Of a DNA stretch of 32,733 nucleotides, positions 4,341 through 24,419 are shown one piece after another. The notes beneath the pieces were generated by a model that was not told the DNA's origin, searched no databases, and was given only the letters and a program-made list of their open reading frames with translations. This stretch comes from a virus. Lineage: Duplodnaviria > Heunggongvirae > Uroviricota > Caudoviricetes. Numbering within the stretch: the first letter of the stretch is position 1; each line of letters begins with the position of its first letter. The DNA lies in the IMG/VR virus record IMGVR_UViG_2654587685_000006; one strand, written 5' to 3'. The position numbers and the translations under genes are program-made.

Positions 4341-4982
4341 TCAGCGACCAATCACCACAACCTGACCACCATCCCCTTCGTCTGCCGTGCTGATCTCCTG
4401 AGAAACCACGCGTGACCCCACGCGCATTTCACCGTACAGAACAGGCAGAACATTGCCCTGGGCAACCATGTTATCCAGTGAAGAGAAATAGGTGTTCTGT
4501 TTGCCGTTATCCGTTGTCTGTGTGCGGGGAGTTCTGGGTTTAGGGGCCAGCATCTGTGCAACACCGCCAAGCGTCATACTGGCACCGAGAGAAAACAGCA
4601 GATTACTCGCCATAATTCCCACCCCCGGCATCCATATAGCAACCGCCATAACAGCAGCGCCCAGCACAGCCTGAAACACGCCGCCACTTTTAGCCCCTGC
4701 CAGACGCGGCACGATGTGGATCACGGCCCCATTCGCCAGCGGTTCATTAAGACGGGCTGATAATTCTGTTTCACCTGTATCACGCCCAGCAATGCGTACC
4801 TGATACCAGCCGTCGCTCAGCTTCTGACGAAACGCCGGAAACTGCATAGCCAGCGCCCGGATGGCTTCGGCTCCCGTTTTCACTCGCAGATCGATGCGGC
4901 GGCCAAATCGTTGTAAATCCCCGTAAAGGCAGATGCGTGCCATGCCCGGTGACGCCAGAGGGAGTGTGTGCGTCGCTGCCAT
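4341..4982 (-). CDS. I: Tail assembly protein I
   Basis: 213-aa ORF; N-terminus MAATHTLPLASPGMARICLYGDLQRFGRRIDLRVKTGAEAIRAL and C-terminus ...NVLPVLYGEMRVGSRVVSQEISTADEGDGGQVVVIGR match lambda gpI as recalled. Confidence 0.9.
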   Translation of the reverse strand: MAATHTLPLASPGMARICLYGDLQRFGRRIDLRVKTGAEAIRALAMQFPAFRQKLSDGWYQVRIAGRDTGETELSARLNEPLANGAVIHIVPRLAGAKSGGVFQAVLGAAVMAVAIWMPGVGIMASNLLFSLGASMTLGGVAQMLAPKPRTPRTQTTDNGKQNTYFSSLDNMVAQGNVLPVLYGEMRVGSRVVSQEISTADEGDGGQVVVIGR

Positions 4983-5632
4983 TTGTCGGTATACCTCTCT
5001 CGTTTGCTCAGTTGTTCAGGAATATGGTGCAGCAGCTCGCCGTCACCACAGTAAATGGCGGCATGATTCGGCACCGATGAACCAAAGCAGCACAGCAGCA
5101 CGTCGCCAGGCTGCGCCTCTGTCAGTGCGACACGGTAAAAACCAGTCGTCTCCATATTGTCAAGATAGAGATTCTGACCGTTACGCCACCAGTCATCCCC
5201 GCGATGAAAATCCGGCATCTCAATTCCCACCAGATGGTAAGCGTCCCGGAACAGCGTGTAACAGTCCGTTACCCCGTGCTCAAAGCGCCGCCCGGTGAGA
5301 TGCGGCACACAGCGGAATTTATGAATCGCCCCCCGGCAGACCAGCCACCACGGCAAATCACTCTGTACCTGCAGCCGCCGGTCGGCCTCACTCAGCCAGG
5401 GCAGACCACCGGGGTGGCTGTGGACCAGCGCCACAATCTCACCCTGCATCTCTGCCTGCAGCCAGTCTTCCGGCGACATACGGAAATACGCCTCCGGCTC
5501 ACCGGAGATATTCACGCAGGGAAAATATCTTTCCCCTTCCGGCGCTCTCACCACGAAGCCGCACGACTCCGCTGGCGCACATCGCCGGGCGTGCGCCAGA
5601 ATCGCTGATTCTGTCTCTGTCATGGGATTCAC
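4880..5632 (-). CDS. K: Tail tip assembly protein K (JAB/MPN plus NlpC/P60-like domains)
   Basis: N-terminus MNPMTETESAILAHARRCAPAESCGFVV as recalled for lambda K; HSHPGG metalloprotease-like motif and a downstream Cys/His region; 3' end overlaps I by about 100 nt in another frame. Confidence 0.85.
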   Translation of the reverse strand: MNPMTETESAILAHARRCAPAESCGFVVRAPEGERYFPCVNISGEPEAYFRMSPEDWLQAEMQGEIVALVHSHPGGLPWLSEADRRLQVQSDLPWWLVCRGAIHKFRCVPHLTGRRFEHGVTDCYTLFRDAYHLVGIEMPDFHRGDDWWRNGQNLYLDNMETTGFYRVALTEAQPGDVLLCCFGSSVPNHAAIYCGDGELLHHIPEQLSKRERYTDKWQRRTHSLWRHRAWHASAFTGIYNDLAAASICE

Positions 5633-17892: not shown

Positions 17893-19812
17893 TTATCCTC
17901 CACTCAGAGCAGCCGCGATTTCTTCAATAGTCATTTCATCGTCGTCCTGTTCATCTCTTCTGGCGCGGGCCAGTGCATCCAGATCCAGTTGCCACCGCTG
18001 AACGGAAATGCGCAGCGCTGCATAGGCATACACCAGACAGTCCAGGGCTTCATTACGCCGTTTTCTGGCATCCCACTGGAGTTTCACCCGCCCGTTCACA
18101 ACTTTTTCAACCAGCTCTTCTGCCACGAGTTGTTTAGCTTCAACATCAGAAAAAATGTCCGGGTTATCCGGAAAACGGAAGGTATACGGTGCTACTTCAC
18201 TGGCAGATACCACCGGCAGGGCAAAACGCGCATACAGCATTTCCTTGACGGTATCGGAACCCACCTCACACAAAAACACCCCACGCTGGTTTCGCTTTTT
18301 TGGCATGGTGATCACCGGCTTGCCGTACACCGACGCCCCTTTGATGGGGAGCACAAAAAAAGTGCCGTGTTTTCTGGATCGCTGATACACAATGTCCTGG
18401 TCAATACCACCGGTATCCCAGCAGACGCGGGAAATGGAAATTTCAGTGCCATCTGCATGACGGTATTTTTTCCGGATCACGGCATCAACGCGTTTAAGGG
18501 TGTCCTCATCTTCCGGTCTCCCCATGATGATCTGCTTGTCAATCAGAAAAGCTTCTTCGCCGGGAGCCCAGCCCCAGACATAAATCTCATAACGGTTTTT
18601 CTGAGAGTCGATCCCTGCGGTCAGGTAAACCACCCGCAGGGGAACCTGCGCATCATAGTGGCAGACTTTTTCCAGCAACAACTCAAAGCTCAGTTTTTCT
18701 GCCACAGCCTCTTCATAAGGCTCCCCCAGCGTGGTGTTAATGAACGTCTTGACGCCATTCGGATCCTTCAGTGCATCAAGCCAGTCATAAACAATCTGTA
18801 CCCAGGTGGTGAACGGGCTGTATGCCGTCCAGATGTGGTACGAGATTGAGCGCGGTGGCGGGATTTCCTCATCACCGGCGCTGTAAAATGTCAGACCGTC
18901 ACGCGTCCACATCCCGGTATTGTCACAAATCCACCGCCCGTCGGTCTGGTCAAGTTCCGACTGACGGATCACGCAGCCATTATGTTCACACAGGTAATAC
19001 ACCGTCTCCGGCTTGCCCTTCTCCCATTTCAGGCCAAAGGTTGTCGCATCATCGCCAAACTTCAGATACTGGGCCTCACCACAATGAGGGCATGGCACAT
19101 AAAACCGCATAAAATGAGCAGATTCGTTCGCGGCTTTTTCAATCTGGCAAAAACCTTTAATTTTGGGCGTTGAGCCGCGTATGGATTTAGGCCATACCGA
19201 ACCTTCGATACGCTTATCGCCAAGCAGGGTTGGTGAACCTTCTTTTTCCACATCCGGTTCAAACGAGGAGAGTTCGTCATAGCAGACCACATCCACAGAT
19301 TTTTCACGGTAGTTTTTGGCAGCAGCGCCGCCCAGACACCAGAATCCCACACCGGAGGAGAAACGTTTCAGGGTAAGCGTGTTGTCCCGATGTTTTCTGC
19401 CAAACCACGGAGCCAGCTCCAGTAATACAGGAACGTCTCTTATCGTTGGTTCGACATGGGATTTCATAAAATCTTCTGCCGCAGAATCTGTCGGCTGAAA
19501 AAGCAGGCTGTTACGGGATTTGTGTTCAATAAAATAAGCCTCCACACCCAACAGCATTTTGGTGTAACCAACACGCGCCGATTTAATCAGATTAACGGTG
19601 CGGATCCGGTCATTCCCCATGCTGTTCATGATGGCAACCTGAAACGGCAGTGTTTCCCATTGCCCGGGAGTATATGAAGACTCTTTTGGCAGATAATAAT
19701 ACTGATCAGCCCACTGAACTGTCGTCAGTGGTACCGGAATATTGAGAGATACAAGCCCTGTTGCTATCGCACCGGCTGCATTAGCTGCCTTCTGTGCGTC
19801 TGAAATCATCAA
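17893..19812 (-). CDS. A: Terminase large subunit A
   Basis: 639 aa; ...[35 protein letters not shown]...[14 protein letters not shown]...[27 protein letters not shown]...ICWDTGGID...[10 protein letters not shown]... matches lambda gpA as recalled. Confidence 0.9.
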
Positions 19813-20329
19813 TCCACCCGCCTACGTTCTCACCAGCTTTAGCTGCAACGTTGGAGGCTTTTGCGATTTCAGTTTTCACCACATCAAGGTGTGATGGTGA
19901 AATATCCGGATATTTACGCTGTAATGTCAGCGGCACACGTACAAGTATCCCCGAAATCTCCTGTGCCACACGTTGCAGAATGAAGGTAAACAATTCCGTT
20001 TCCAGTACCAGCCCTTCTTCGCGGGCATTCTTCAGTTCCTGTGCATCAGCCTGTGCTTTTGTGAGTCGGTAGCGTTCATAGTCAATGGTGCCGGGTTGTA
20101 AATCTGATTCCGCAGCCGCACGCAAATCCTCGGTCTCTTTGCGGAGTTTTTCGTTTTCAATATCGGCTTCGCGTTGCGCATACCACTGAATTGCCATGGA
20201 GGTATCAAATACAGATTCAACGCCCTTACCACCTCCGGAGACGCAAGGGAGTCCCTGAGACTGCCAGCGTTCAATCGTTCGCGGATCCACGTTGAAAATT
20301 TCGGCAAGTTTCTTTTTATTAACCTTCAT
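19781..20329 (-). CDS. nu1: Terminase small subunit Nu1
   Basis: [28 protein letters not shown]...[49 protein letters not shown] resembles lambda Nu1; overlaps A start. Confidence 0.9.
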
Positions 20330-20339
20330 GAAACAGTCT

Positions 20340-20520
20340 CACAACAAACACAGGGTCCGACATGAAAGTGCCCGAAAATGACTTTTTTAGGCGTTTTCAT
20401 GTCGGACCTTTTGCGGATTCGATATTAGAAAAAACAAATAGTTATGTTCGAGAAGTACCGACATGATTTTCCCCGAAAAATTTTCATAAATAGCGAAAAC
20501 CCGCGACGCTCCCGCCCCGT
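20340..20520 (-). other. cos site (cosB with repeated small-terminase binding motifs, plus cosN)
   Basis: Minus-strand GGGCGGGAGCGT-CGCGGGTTTTCGCTATTTATGAAAATTTT (fwd about 20476-20517) closely matches the lambda left end as recalled (GGGCGGCGACCT-CGCGGGTTTTCGCTATTTATGAAAATTTT). Three copies of a GTCCGACATGA-like motif lie between it and nu1 (about 20355-20367, 20387-20398 inverted, 20457-20467). Confidence 0.75.
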
Positions 20521-20913
20521 GGCAGGGCACCCCACCGGAAGGACCCGCACAAATGAGAGCGTTTGTCATTAACATTTACAGATAAGATGACGTACATCAT
20601 TGAAACGCCATTCAGCCATATACCGGCAGCATTCGTAGTTGCACTCCGTAACTCTGCGACTTAGGTTAAAAACATGGCCCTCTTTTGCCACCGGCAAATC
20701 TTCAATGGATTTCCCCTGCCGGTTTTTTATTTTCGTCGATGCATAACATTGCATTTACATCAATAGCGGCTATTGTCATTAGTATGTTGCATCAATGCAT
20801 GGGTGGTATTGGCGGTCTTCGCCGGCCGGTTCTGTGTAGCTGCTCCCTGTGACCGGTTTTTTATTTCTCACATTACAGCACCCCCTTAGAGTGAAGGGCT
20901 GCTGTAATGCCTG

Positions 20914-21312
20914 TTACTCACGAATCAGGCGAGCACTCTTACTATTCATTTCAATACGCGAATACTGCGGATTACCATCAATGATGTCTGTCATTACGAA
21001 CACCTCACCCGGCTGCAGTTCAACTGCACCTTCCGGTGATTTCATACCGGCAAATACCGGACAGCCCGGATGGCGATCATCTTCTGTTGCTTCCAGCATT
21101 GACTCACCAAACCACGCCGTTGTGGCACGACCATCAGCAGCCTTGTAGTGGATCAAGTACTGGTTTTCGCCATCCGCATACTGCGCGCGAGCTTTAACCT
21201 CACCCCATTCATCACTGATGCGCATCTCCACCAGTTGTGACAGTTCAAACTTAAACGGAACAGCCACAGCACCAATTGCAACCGGTTTGTTTTCTGTTTT
21301 TTCCATCATCAT
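20914..21312 (-). CDS. Hypothetical protein (132 aa, soluble), accessory gene between lysis cassette and cos
   Basis: Intact ORF; I do not recognise the family. Followed by a long hairpin at 20871-20909. Confidence 0.5.
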   Translation of the reverse strand: MMMEKTENKPVAIGAVAVPFKFELSQLVEMRISDEWGEVKARAQYADGENQYLIHYKAADGRATTAWFGESMLEATEDDRHPGCPVFAGMKSPEGAVELQPGEVFVMTDIIDGNPQYSRIEMNSKSARLIRE

Positions 21313-21368
21313 CTCCAGATATAAAAAAGCCCCGCATTTGCGGGGCTACAAACAGGCATCACAGCCAG

Positions 21369-21584
21369 TTAGCTAAGTCCGACAGACATAAAATCATCAC
21401 TACCTAAACGATGGGAACCATAACGAACTTCATACTCCCCATTCAATTCAGAGCGTTTAGACTTTGCGCCATCCTCCGTTGCATAAATGCCGACCAGATG
21501 CCAGGGTTTGTCACGTACTACAGCCCAACCAAGAACCCATCCCTGATTATCAGGCTCAGCCTTCAGGTTATTTTCTACAAACAT
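21369..21584 (-). CDS. Hypothetical small protein (about 71 aa)
   Basis: Preferred start MFVENNLKAEP with AAGGAGAA SD; family not recognised. Confidence 0.4.
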   Translation of the reverse strand: MFVENNLKAEPDNQGWVLGWAVVRDKPWHLVGIYATEDGAKSKRSELNGEYEVRYGSHRLGSDDFMSVGLS

Positions 21585-21624
21585 AGTGTTCTCCTTTTGG
21601 GTACCCAGAGACATTCTATGTCAT

Positions 21625-21849
21625 TCATGAAACAGGCAACAACGTGGCCGTTACAATCCCTGCCATATTTGCGTTCAGATCACATTCAACAGAAATTTCT
21701 TCATCCGTGGCATCCACTTCATATGTCCGGGAATAACACTCCGTGCATTTACCACTGAAGATATCCTTAACCAGAACACGTCCACGCTGCAAAACCCTAA
21801 ATGGAATCGTTCCGTTAAAGGGCTTTACGGTTACCAGTAATCTCTTCAT
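21625..21849 (-). CDS. Hypothetical small protein (about 74 aa)
   Basis: Preferred start MKRLLVTVKPF... with GGAGGGG SD; family not recognised. Confidence 0.4.
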   Translation of the reverse strand: MKRLLVTVKPFNGTIPFRVLQRGRVLVKDIFSGKCTECYSRTYEVDATDEEISVECDLNANMAGIVTATLLPVS

Positions 21850-22023
21850 ATCCCCTCCGGATAAAAATGCCCCTTGCCGCCCGGGCTGTTGTTCAAAGTT
21901 CATCCTGATTCGGGCAAGATTCAGAATGTATAAGACAAATTGGCACACACAGCAGAATTTCATGCTTTCTGGACGCTGGCGCATCCTTCATTTTTCAGCG
22001 AAATATTCTGCTCTTACGGGCGA

Positions 22024-22206
22024 TCAGCTCTGCAGACACTGTCGAACACCGTCGACAATTTCGCAGACCTGAGAAGCCGTATCGAAAAGCTGGCGCGCCT
22101 TATCCAGGCTGACGCACCCCCCCAATAAAAAAGGCACCAGTATCGCTACCAGTGCCCATTTCGCCGCCGTTCGCGGCATTCTGTGTGTCCAGTGTTTTCG
22201 CGTCAT
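22024..22206 (-). CDS. Small predicted lipoprotein (about 60 aa)
   Basis: MTRKHWTHRMPRTAAKWALVAILVPFLLGGC: positively charged n-region, hydrophobic core, L-G-G-C lipobox; short Cys-containing mature part. Not similar to lambda Bor or Rz1 as recalled. Confidence 0.5.
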   Translation of the reverse strand: MTRKHWTHRMPRTAAKWALVAILVPFLLGGCVSLDKARQLFDTASQVCEIVDGVRQCLQS

Positions 22207-22214
22207 ATCACCAC

Positions 22215-22331
22215 TCACGATTTCAGAGCAACAATCAATTTTGCCAGCCCATACAGTATCGGAGACACGGCGATGCCAACCGCCACCCACTTAATGGCAA
22301 AAGCCACCGCCCGAATAAAATCAGCACTCAT
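22215..22331 (-). CDS. Possible small single-TM peptide (38 aa)
   Basis: MSADFIRAVAFAIKWVAVGIAVSPILYGLAKLIVALKS; weak SD; immediately upstream of the lipoprotein gene. Confidence 0.25.
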   Translation of the reverse strand: MSADFIRAVAFAIKWVAVGIAVSPILYGLAKLIVALKS

Positions 22332-22560
22332 CTGTTTAAATAAATTGTTGTGTATGCAACCAGTGCGGTACAAATAATCCATGCAACTGGCGTTAGTATG
22401 CGTCTGATGCCCCGGCATACCGCGATGATTTTTGCGGCATCATCAGCCCCTCTGCGGGGTGGTTTCTGCTTTTATCATCAGATCATCTCCAAATTTATCT
22501 TTCGTCGTGTTAGGCTTTACTGGCATGAATGATCCCCATGCGCATTCACAAAATGAATCC

Positions 22561-22597
22561 ATAAACACAAAGCCCCGATTGCTCCAACAACCGGGGC
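22561..22597 (-). terminator. Rho-independent terminator just after the endolysin gene
   Basis: Minus-strand GCCCCGG-(loop)-CGGGGC followed by TTTGTGTTTAT, starting a few nt after the endolysin TAA stop. Confidence 0.5.
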
Positions 22598-22607
22598 TTT
22601 GCCTTAT

Positions 22608-22991
22608 TTATCGTTTCAGCTGAAAGTGAGCCCCGTCCTTTAACGACCGCCACTCACCGCCCCATTCGATGGCGGTTCCCAGCTCTGCGGCAGCCTGCTT
22701 AAATGCCTGCGCGATTTTCTCGTACAGAGGCCAGTCCCATGACACCTGGCTACCAACCCAGGCAACAACATCCACCGCATCACCGGTCAGGTGGCGGCTG
22801 TTCATGGTCTGGCTTTTCCCTTCCGCGACCAGCTGTTTCTGGCGCTCTTTCGTGCGCAGCCCTTCCGTAATACCGAAATCAACCTCCGTCAGCTCCAGCG
22901 CACGGCGAACGACAGCAACCAGCTGTAGTTTAACGCCCTCCAGATTTTTTTCACTGCGACGACTGAATCTGAATTTACCCGACATGCTCAC
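22608..22991 (-). CDS. Endolysin, peptidase M15-like (L-alanyl-D-glutamate peptidase type)
   Basis: 127 aa, no signal peptide; SRHLTGDAVDV gives an H-x6-D zinc-ligand spacing and there is a C-terminal GAHFQ His, consistent with the M15/VanY-like fold; follows two small membrane-protein genes with a 4-nt overlap. Confidence 0.7.
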   Translation of the reverse strand: MSMSGKFRFSRRSEKNLEGVKLQLVAVVRRALELTEVDFGITEGLRTKERQKQLVAEGKSQTMNSRHLTGDAVDVVAWVGSQVSWDWPLYEKIAQAFKQAAAELGTAIEWGGEWRSLKDGAHFQLKR

Positions 22992-23263
22992 CTCCTGAAT
23001 GAAAGGATTTTTGAAACGTTCCCGCGTGCACGTATCACCAGCACGCAGAACAGCAGATTAAGCCCCACCGCCAGCCAGTTCGCCGCTAACGGGCGACCAC
23101 ACAGATAGCTGAGGGGCGCAAAGGCATACAGCAGCATCAGCAGCCAGGCCAGCCATGACATCAGCGGCTTATGTCTGGAATCGCGACGACGATAAAAAAA
23201 GAGCGTCAGCACGATAACCGTGCATAACGCCACATTCAGCAATCCGGGAAGGTTACTTAACAT
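22988..23263 (-). CDS. Small 3-TM membrane protein (holin/antiholin-like)
   Basis: About 91 aa from MLSNLPGLLNVALCTVIVLTLFFY...; three hydrophobic segments; GGAGGTG SD 6 nt upstream. Confidence 0.5.
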   Translation of the reverse strand: MLSNLPGLLNVALCTVIVLTLFFYRRRDSRHKPLMSWLAWLLMLLYAFAPLSYLCGRPLAANWLAVGLNLLFCVLVIRARGNVSKILSFRR

Positions 23264-23645
23264 TGCCGCCACCTCCGCCCCGCAGGCGGGAGAACACACC
23301 GGACGCCAGCGATGCAATATCCTGCTGGTGGATGAACGACAGAATCTTCACCGACACCACCGATACCAGCACCGCACACAGCGCATCTGCCGATGTACCG
23401 TCATACCCTGTTTTTGATGCAATCCAGGCTGACAGCACGCGCGCCCCCAGCACGCCGACGATAAACGACACCAAAAAATGCGCCACCACACGCCAGACTG
23501 AAAGCGCCTGCGGCATCGTTGCCACAAATAACGCCCCGGCGAACGCACCAAACACAATCCCGAAATCCGTTCCGGTAAACAGCCCGAATACCGTCGCCCC
23601 ACCGAGCGCCGCAGCCGTGCCGGAACCAGATAAGGGTTCAGACAT
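23253..23645 (-). CDS. Putative holin (multi-TM, Gly/Ala-rich)
   Basis: MSEPLSGSGTAAALGGATVFGLFTGTDFGIVFGAFAGALFVA...; three to four TM segments; first gene of the lysis cassette; AGGAGA SD. Confidence 0.55.
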   Translation of the reverse strand: MSEPLSGSGTAAALGGATVFGLFTGTDFGIVFGAFAGALFVATMPQALSVWRVVAHFLVSFIVGVLGARVLSAWIASKTGYDGTSADALCAVLVSVVSVKILSFIHQQDIASLASGVFSRLRGGGGGNVK

Positions 23646-23660
23646 ACGTTTTTCTCCTGT

Positions 23661-23686
23661 AAATAAAAAAGGGCCACCAGCGGCCC
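23661..23686 (-). terminator. Hairpin plus T-run immediately upstream of holin RBS
   Basis: Minus-strand GGGCC-gctggt-GGCCC followed by TTTTTTATTT. Confidence 0.4.
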
Positions 23687-23807
23687 GTAAAAACACCCCG
23701 TCAAAGGCGCCCGCAGATGCCTTTTGCGCGGCGTTATTTGATGTGATATGCGCCGGGTGTGGCGAGGATATGAAAAAGGCCCGCCGTAGCGAGCCATGAA
23801 AAAAATG

Positions 23808-24109: not shown

Positions 24110-24184
<75 letters not shown>

Positions 24185-24187
24185 ATA

Positions 24188-24263
<76 letters not shown>

Positions 24264-24265
24264 AC

Positions 24266-24342
24266 TGGCCCGCCACCGAGGACTCGAACCTCGCACCATC
24301 AACTTAGAAGGTTGATGCTCTATCCGGATGAGCTAGTAGCGG
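24266..24342 (-). tRNA. tRNA-Arg (anticodon UCU)
   Basis: CCGCTACTAGCTCATCCGGATAGAGCATCAACCTTCTAAGTTGATGGTGCGAGGTTCGAGTCCTCGGTGGCGGGCCA; anticodon loop CUUCUAA; reads AGA/AGG. Confidence 0.85.
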
Positions 24343-24343
24343 C

Positions 24344-24419
24344 TGGTGGCCCTTGCTGGATTTGAACCAGCGACCTGGCGATTATGAGTCGCTCGCTCTC
24401 ACCACTGAGCTAAAGGGCC
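24344..24419 (-). tRNA. tRNA-Ile2-like (anticodon CAU, probably lysidine-modified to read AUA; Met not excluded)
   Basis: GGCCCTTTAGCTCAGTGGTGAGAGCGAGCGACTCATAATCGCCAGGTCGCTGGTTCAAATCCAGCAAGGGCCACCA; body resembles E. coli ileX/ileY-type tRNA as recalled. Confidence 0.8.

Follow-up and report, generated by a model that had tools for sequence, protein, structure and literature searches.

A small predicted lipoprotein gene in the spanin position and optional cargo genes between the lysis cassette and cos of a lambdoid prophage

The IMG/VR record IMGVR_UViG_2654587685_000006, a stretch of 32,733 nucleotides (nt) referred to below as the window, represents a lambdoid prophage in which every phage gene lies on the minus strand. 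Between the gene of the M15 endolysin and the cos site with the adjoining small-terminase gene Nu1, it contains a block of five intact small genes, designated A to E, and a sixth gene, F, which is broken by a frameshift. The evidence tips towards a composite block, in which F, E and D form the tail end of the lysis cassette and C, B and A are independent cargo genes. The gene in question is mainly D (22024-22206, minus strand), which encodes a prolipoprotein of 60 amino acids (aa). Judged by its genomic context in related, non-independent prophages, D rather seems to perform or to support the step of lysis that concerns the outer membrane, and to do so in the absence of a canonical inner-membrane spanin subunit (i-spanin). 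An initial annotation of the window had described three small open reading frames (ORFs), a lipoprotein gene and a possible 38-aa transmembrane peptide on this strand, whose coordinates and ribosome-binding sites proved to be correct, and had regarded the whole block as likely cargo. This reading holds for A, B and C, which are optional and reside in a variable slot, but not for D, which occupies the spanin position, and not for E, whose relatives occur in ordinary lysis cassettes.

The D protein possesses a signal peptide with a long basic N-terminal region (MTRKHWTHRMPRTAAKW) and a lipobox, LLGG/C, with the cysteine at position 31. In most D alleles the lipobox reads LLVG/C or FLVG/C. The mature peptide comprises 30 aa (CVSLDKARQLFDTASQVCEIVDGVRQCLQS) with a valine at position +2, followed by a serine. 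According to the established +2 rule, a valine instead of an aspartate at this position leads to sorting of a lipoprotein to the outer membrane. Thus, D is predicted to be an outer-membrane lipoprotein. Mature D is predicted to be helical, with a net charge of -1, a moderate amphipathicity (hydrophobic moment 0.33-0.42) and a heptad-like pattern of hydrophobic residues. Across the D alleles, the cysteine of the lipobox, Cys18 and Cys27 are nearly invariant. The protein ends with ...VRQCLQS and has no C-terminal hydrophobic segment; the absence of a C-terminal transmembrane domain distinguishes it from unimolecular spanins of the T1 gp11 type. Over its full length D matches phrog_7528, a family of unknown function that was its only match among the PHROGs. 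The possibility that the window conceals an Rz1-like gene at another position was rejected as well, as a scan of the 32.7 kb for lipoboxes gave D as the only credible lipobox ORF. In complete genomes of E. coli, D was detected in 314 of 5426 (approximately 6%). The literature search revealed no experimental study of D, and none relevant to the lysis of phiP27 or Shiga toxin (Stx) 2k phages or to orphan outer-membrane spanin subunits (o-spanins).

To describe the surroundings of D, IMG/VR contigs were collected with D (272 contigs) and with the second holin gene (288 contigs) as anchors. The 80 closest loci were sampled for each search, and reference proteins were mapped onto the 80 D-anchored loci. 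In all of these, D is preceded by holin-holin-endolysin, the endolysin being either an M15 peptidase or a GH108-like lysozyme. The packaging genes after D vary: they are lambda-type Nu1/A, P27-type HNH plus small terminase, or others, and in some loci the distance between D and the HNH gene is as short as 45 nt. In the reverse direction, 76 of the holin-anchored loci extended 1.5 kb or more downstream, and 67 of these contained D. In 29 loci, D starts 18 nt past the stop codon of the M15 gene and has its own Shine-Dalgarno site (AGGTGGGG), and this short gap leaves no space for an i-spanin gene. Within the window, no ORF of the i-spanin type (N-terminal transmembrane domain plus periplasmic coiled coil) was found between the endolysin gene and cos. 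The minimal cassette is holin-holin-endolysin-D. D travels with the lysis cassette and not with the cargo, and is its near-constant fourth gene.

Within one and the same genomic context, D and Rz/Rz1 take each other's place. Lambda-like Rz was found in the same slot in five of the nine loci devoid of D. One locus (L138) shows the order M15-Rz-C-...-Nu1, which is the arrangement of the window with Rz replacing D. A gene pair encoding a 60-aa E-like protein and a 44-aa peptide is 84% identical at the DNA level between locus L136 and phage PhiR12_1, and the similarity stops exactly where D (L136) or Rz/Rz1 (PhiR12_1) begins. In the more distant phages mEp390 and HK639, which possess the same holin pair, a small annotated spanin pair follows right after the endolysin gene. 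A D-like sequence together with Rz was encountered in two cases: the D sequence of GER2 contains three in-frame stop codons, and that of L165 lacks a normal start codon. A survey of 279 Stx phages reported Rz in 277 of them and a metallopeptidase endolysin family in two, but does not state that the two phages with this endolysin are the two without Rz (PMC8136144).

Compared to Rz/Rz1 of lambda, D has in common the last position of the cassette after the endolysin gene, the small size of a predicted outer-membrane lipoprotein, the conserved periplasmic cysteines and the interchangeability in the same context. It differs in that there is no gene for an i-spanin partner, that merely 30 residues reside in the periplasm, and that these are predicted to be helical rather than proline-rich. 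Of the features that characterize two-component spanins, D shows a lipobox without an inner-membrane retention signal and the location next to the endolysin gene, but it lacks an i-spanin gene, a length sufficient to span the periplasm and a match to a spanin family.

In the favoured reading, D would be expressed along with the two holins and the endolysin as part of the late transcript antiterminated by Q. Its predicted route follows from established lipoprotein biology: Sec would export the protein, Cys31 would receive the lipid anchor, and the Lol system would deliver it to the inner leaflet of the outer membrane. The periplasm would then keep a moderately amphipathic, heptad-patterned helical peptide of 30 residues with two conserved cysteines, and this peptide would provide the step that is performed by Rz/Rz1 in lambda, without an i-spanin partner. 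It may do so by direct destabilisation of the outer membrane, by a short coiled coil or with a partner contributed by the host or the holins. A bolder and more tentative proposal is that D constitutes a third kind of outer-membrane disruptor, a self-sufficient lipopeptide of approximately 30 residues without an inner-membrane partner, which might function like a bacteriocin release protein or by way of a short coiled coil located in the inner leaflet of the outer membrane. Bacteriocin release proteins and entericidins are very small lipoproteins whose mature peptides consist of roughly 20 to 35 residues, and bacteriocin release proteins compromise the outer membrane unaided. The likeness to D is an analogy that pertains to size and lipid anchor only, since D has no match to the colicin-lysis family of Pfam. 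The disruptin of phage phiKT (gp28) is likewise a lone small protein encoded in a lysis cassette without spanins. It is cationic and antimicrobial-peptide-like and was proposed to breach the outer membrane (bioRxiv 10.1101/515445). A role of D as a cationic disruptin was rejected on account of its negative net charge, its lipid anchor and its moderate amphipathicity.

Several points weigh against a lytic role of D. The argument builds on the position of the gene and on its either-or distribution among closely related, non-independent prophages, and both 80-locus samples are skewed towards close relatives of the window. D gave no Pfam match at E ≤ 1, and hence none to the Rz1, colicin-lysis or entericidin families, nor did it match any spanin family of the PHROGs; in the same comparison, gp51 of mEp390, which served as positive control, matched PHROGs labelled 'Rz-like spanin'. 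A peptide of 30 residues is too short to span the periplasm, and we know of no established mechanism by which a lone outer-membrane lipopeptide takes part in phage lysis. Moreover, both Rz/Rz1 and D, the latter from a GTG start codon, may be expressed in L165. Two phages carrying genes of the type II heat-labile toxin (LT-II) and three further loci with the same holins (L151, L163 and L169) have neither D nor a spanin. From these cassettes it follows that the outer-membrane function may be dispensable and that D is possibly an add-on. In the two LT-II phages, the toxin genes are located directly after the endolysin gene (Rac-SA53, L087, 4416-5556; SerU-LTIIb, L088, 4603-5752); no spanin or D is annotated there and there is no room for either.

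The same observations would fit a different function, which we consider unlikely. D might be a late outer-membrane lipoprotein acting outside lysis, for instance in receptor masking, superinfection exclusion or serum resistance like T5 Llp, Cor and Bor, in phages that lack a spanin function. Besides the cassettes without D and spanin, the shortness of the peptide and the missing spanin homology, such a role is suggested by the fact that the region after the endolysin gene is a known cargo slot, in which bor (six intervals) and LT-II genes were found. In addition, approximately 13% of the phage genomes surveyed for SpaninDB had no identifiable spanin (PMC6139136). On the other hand, D is coupled to the endolysin gene by the 18-nt gap and its own ribosome-binding site, and no promoter was predicted for it. 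It is present whatever tail and packaging module the phage possesses, so that specificity for a single receptor is unlikely. Finally, the exchange of D for Rz/Rz1 in identical contexts and the damage to D where Rz is present speak against a function outside lysis.

Somewhat less likely still is that D is a true o-spanin of a two-component system whose inner-membrane partner has escaped recognition, the candidates being an E-type protein, an F-type protein or one of the two holins. This assignment has been published for a relative: SpaninDB lists phiP27 as having a separated two-component spanin with 32 and 30 periplasmic residues, the shortest of the survey (Kongari et al. 2018; PMC6139136). 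The 'o-spanin' of phiP27 (51 aa, positions 20706-20861 of the phage record) is the D gene, with 92% identity. The initial annotation had named confident homology to lysis proteins such as spanins as evidence against its cargo reading, and for D this objection applies in part, although the o-spanin label in SpaninDB is computational only. The corresponding 'i-spanin' (record positions 20348-20542; 4780-4974 of locus L003, minus strand) is a 64-aa ORF. It starts with TTG, has no PHROG match and runs antisense to a 90-aa ORF (4718-4990, plus strand) that matches phrog_36812 over its full length. For these reasons, the i-spanin call for phiP27 looks spurious and the published two-component assignment appears to be wrong. 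The ORF has no counterpart in the window, and its segment was detected in few loci. The most fitting description of D is that of an orphan lipoprotein at the spanin position.

An i-spanin among the small membrane proteins could be suspected, because in many loci an E-type gene immediately precedes D, its stop codon adjoining or overlapping the start codon of D, and because the holin pair that accompanies D is always the same. The E protein of the window (22215-22331, minus strand; 38 aa) is essentially one transmembrane helix. It is the short form of a family of 57 to 60 aa, whose members begin with a basic stretch of approximately 35 aa and end in a transmembrane helix; it matches the C-terminal part of phrog_1115, phrog_3246 and phrog_4493. 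Full-length E-type proteins directly precede D in every cassette with a GH108-like lysozyme. However, an E-type protein was also identified between R and Rz in the ordinary lambdoid cassette of phage PhiR12_1, alongside Rz/Rz1. E-type proteins thus appear to be general accessory membrane proteins and not partners specific to D. According to the positive-inside rule, their predicted topology would expose almost nothing to the periplasm. Due to this topology and the co-occurrence with Rz/Rz1, the E-type peptide was rejected as i-spanin. Moreover, neither E nor F is present in the 29 loci in which D directly follows the endolysin gene.

When intact, the F gene (approximately 22328-22526, minus strand) encodes 65 aa, with a transmembrane helix at the C-terminal end; its stop codon overlaps the start codon of E (ATGA). 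A 1-nt insertion near position 22451, relative to locus L002, truncates F to 27 aa, which is the case only in the allele of the window; F is intact in L002, L107 and L031. The intact gene is left unannotated by the Prokaryotic Genome Annotation Pipeline (PGAP) and F has no PHROG match. In many lambdoid cassettes, a pair of genes for tiny membrane proteins (approximately 60 aa, phrog_1115, and 44 aa, phrog_4906) lies between the endolysin gene and the spanin genes or D. Examples are PhiR12_1 (L178, 2855-3183), L136 (4987-5321) and L001 (5882-6177), the last of which encodes a third such membrane peptide of 50 aa (phrog_12997).

In related, near-identical prophages, RefSeq annotates all of A to E as coding sequences ('hypothetical protein'), and every one of the five has a match, along its own length, to a PHROG family without an assigned function. 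Pairwise ratios of nonsynonymous to synonymous substitution rates (dN/dS) amounted to 0.31 for A, 0.03 for B, 0.11 for C and 0.20 for D (70 alleles), compared to 0.10-0.32 for the neighbouring endolysin, holin and Nu1 genes. On the basis of the RefSeq annotation, the PHROG matches and dN/dS values in the range of the neighbours, A to E are not chance ORFs, and they are kept as intact genes in related prophages. None of the five matched a family in Pfam, NCBIfam or PADLOC (PADLOC at E ≤ 0.1), and A, B and C had no match among the sequences of the PDB. The statement that these three cannot be assigned to a family was thereby borne out. For B, the sole weak match in Pfam was DUF7457 (E 0.19). One Pseudomonas homologue of B is named DUF2188 in UniRef; the DUF2188 model was not matched by B in the Pfam search.

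A, B and C are optional cargo under purifying selection in a known variable slot. Each of A, B, C, E and F was found in only some of the 80 D-anchored loci. Between D and the packaging genes, 53 distinct versions of the interval were counted, 45 to 2221 nt in length, which harbor at least ten gene families. Among them is bor, which in its six intervals is on the opposite strand as in lambda. Together with the LT-II genes, this diversity substantiates the suggestion that the locus is a variable cargo slot in relatives. In the 5426 complete E. coli genomes, A was present 233 times and the C-B pair 44 times. For A, B and C alike, presence varies among similar phages and contexts differ, as is typical of morons. 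They resemble bor and the LT-II genes of Rac-SA53 and SerU-LTIIb in being optional small genes in the same slot between lysis genes and cos. They differ from these by the lack of a known function and of a signal peptide, and by the orientation with the late operon without a predicted promoter. A crude consensus-match scan for sigma-70-like promoters found none on the minus strand between 20300 and 24000, and hence an expression in the lysogen, which had been thought possible, is without support. C, B and A would be small cytoplasmic proteins that are read through with the late genes. It speaks against this view that the moron label reflects optional presence only, with no promoter predicted, and, in the case of A, that the gene is found beside small-terminase genes in other prophages (see below).

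The A gene (20914-21312, minus strand; ribosome-binding site GGAG) encodes 132 aa as an ORF. The more probable start codon is the third ATG (21306), which shortens the protein to 130 aa and is also the one called by PGAP in a prophage with 100% identity. The structural model is poor (predicted local distance difference test score, pLDDT, 57), but the core looks like an N-terminal SH3-like beta-barrel domain of approximately 57 aa. This domain is widespread (701 relatives in a profile search) and not covered by any Pfam family. The C-terminal tail of 32 aa (20914-21009, minus strand) is a separable module (phrog_8025). In approximately ten loci, tblastn detected the tail on its own after D, the N-terminal domain of A being absent. 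Homologues of A adjoin small-terminase genes in a P2-like prophage of Yersinia and in a Salmonella prophage, so that A could have a packaging-related role instead of being cargo.

B (21369-21584, minus strand; 71 aa) is preceded by a ribosome-binding site, AAGGAG, six nt ahead of its ATG. The model is confident (pLDDT 94) and displays a compact alpha/beta fold, for which no significant structural neighbour was found. The motifs DPDNxGWVLGW and YGSHRLGSDDF are invariant. As a mobile moron, B is shared by prophages of several gammaproteobacteria: in those of Pseudomonas and Vreelandella, its homologues are inserted in reversed orientation within tail modules, and in Serratia they lie between the lysis genes and the terminase genes. 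In two loci (L171, 4001-4246; L173, 4001-4222), B homologues lie between tail genes near a J-like tip protein, which is a classic moron position.

C (21625-21849, minus strand; 74 aa; ribosome-binding site GGAGG) is a beta-rich protein with invariant Cys35 and Cys56 and a partial match to phrog_2571. Its homologues were found only in E. coli and Salmonella. One C subfamily has an additional pair of cysteines (KCR...PVC; residues 62 and 74), which are either both present or both absent, and this hints at a disulfide or a metal site. The common orientation of E, D, C, B and A, their tight packing and the recurrence of the full arrangement in a few genomes might suggest that the five act together as a single cargo unit in lysogenic conversion, exclusion or anti-defence. 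This is highly improbable, since the parts occur independently (most loci have D but none of A, B and C; A is found without B or C, C behind Rz, and B in the tail modules of other genera), their genome prevalences differ approximately sevenfold and PADLOC gave no match.

The remaining genes around the block, all on the minus strand, conform to a lambdoid late region. Just upstream of the holin genes there is a cluster of four tRNA genes (Gly-TCC, Lys-TTT, Arg-TCT and Met-CAT; 24110-24419), and the tRNA sets at this place differ among relatives. Holin 1 (Phage_holin_8; 23253-23696), holin 2 (Phage_holin_3_7; 22988-23317) and the M15 peptidase endolysin (22608-22991) were identified by both Pfam and PHROG matches. 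Directly after the endolysin stop codon and ahead of F, a G+C-rich hairpin of 9 bp followed by TTTGTGTTT was noticed (approximately 22560-22600, minus strand), which is absent from the cassettes where D directly follows the endolysin gene. A second, strong hairpin, resembling an intrinsic terminator (8 bp, seven of them G-C, then TTTTTT; 21328-21347, minus strand), is located between B and A, its T-run abutting the ribosome-binding site of A. Downstream of the block, a lambda-like cos region lies between A and Nu1 (small terminase; 19781-20329), which is followed by the gene of the large terminase (17893-19812). At 20506-20517 the window reads ACGCTCCCGCCC, the reverse complement of GGGCGGGAGCGT. 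It agrees at nine of twelve positions with the cohesive-end sequence of lambda cosN, and a lambda-like cosB sequence follows. Thus, cos is placed approximately 400 nt downstream of A. The IMG/VR contig IMGVR_UViG_2645727676_000004 (L004/L091) is 100% identical to the window over the compared segments (D, the second holin gene and the F region including the frameshift) and probably represents this very prophage or its genome of origin.

For phages that lack recognisable spanins, only one alternative means of breaching the outer membrane, the disruptin, has been described. The D cassette offers a simple test case in E. coli, as it consists of holins, an endolysin and one extra gene directed at the envelope that is exchanged for Rz/Rz1 in nature. 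A, B and C represent three additional conserved protein families without known function. In several phages, the cassette adjoins toxin genes: Stx2e is encoded upstream of the holin genes in phiP27, and LT-II after the endolysin gene in Rac-SA53 and SerU-LTIIb. The same cassette is carried by phiSTEC1575-Stx2k. The mode of lysis of these phages therefore bears on the release of their toxins. Should the proposed function of D be true, a disruptor of this type would be present in the prophages of approximately 6% of the complete E. coli genomes, among them phages that encode Stx2e or Stx2k.

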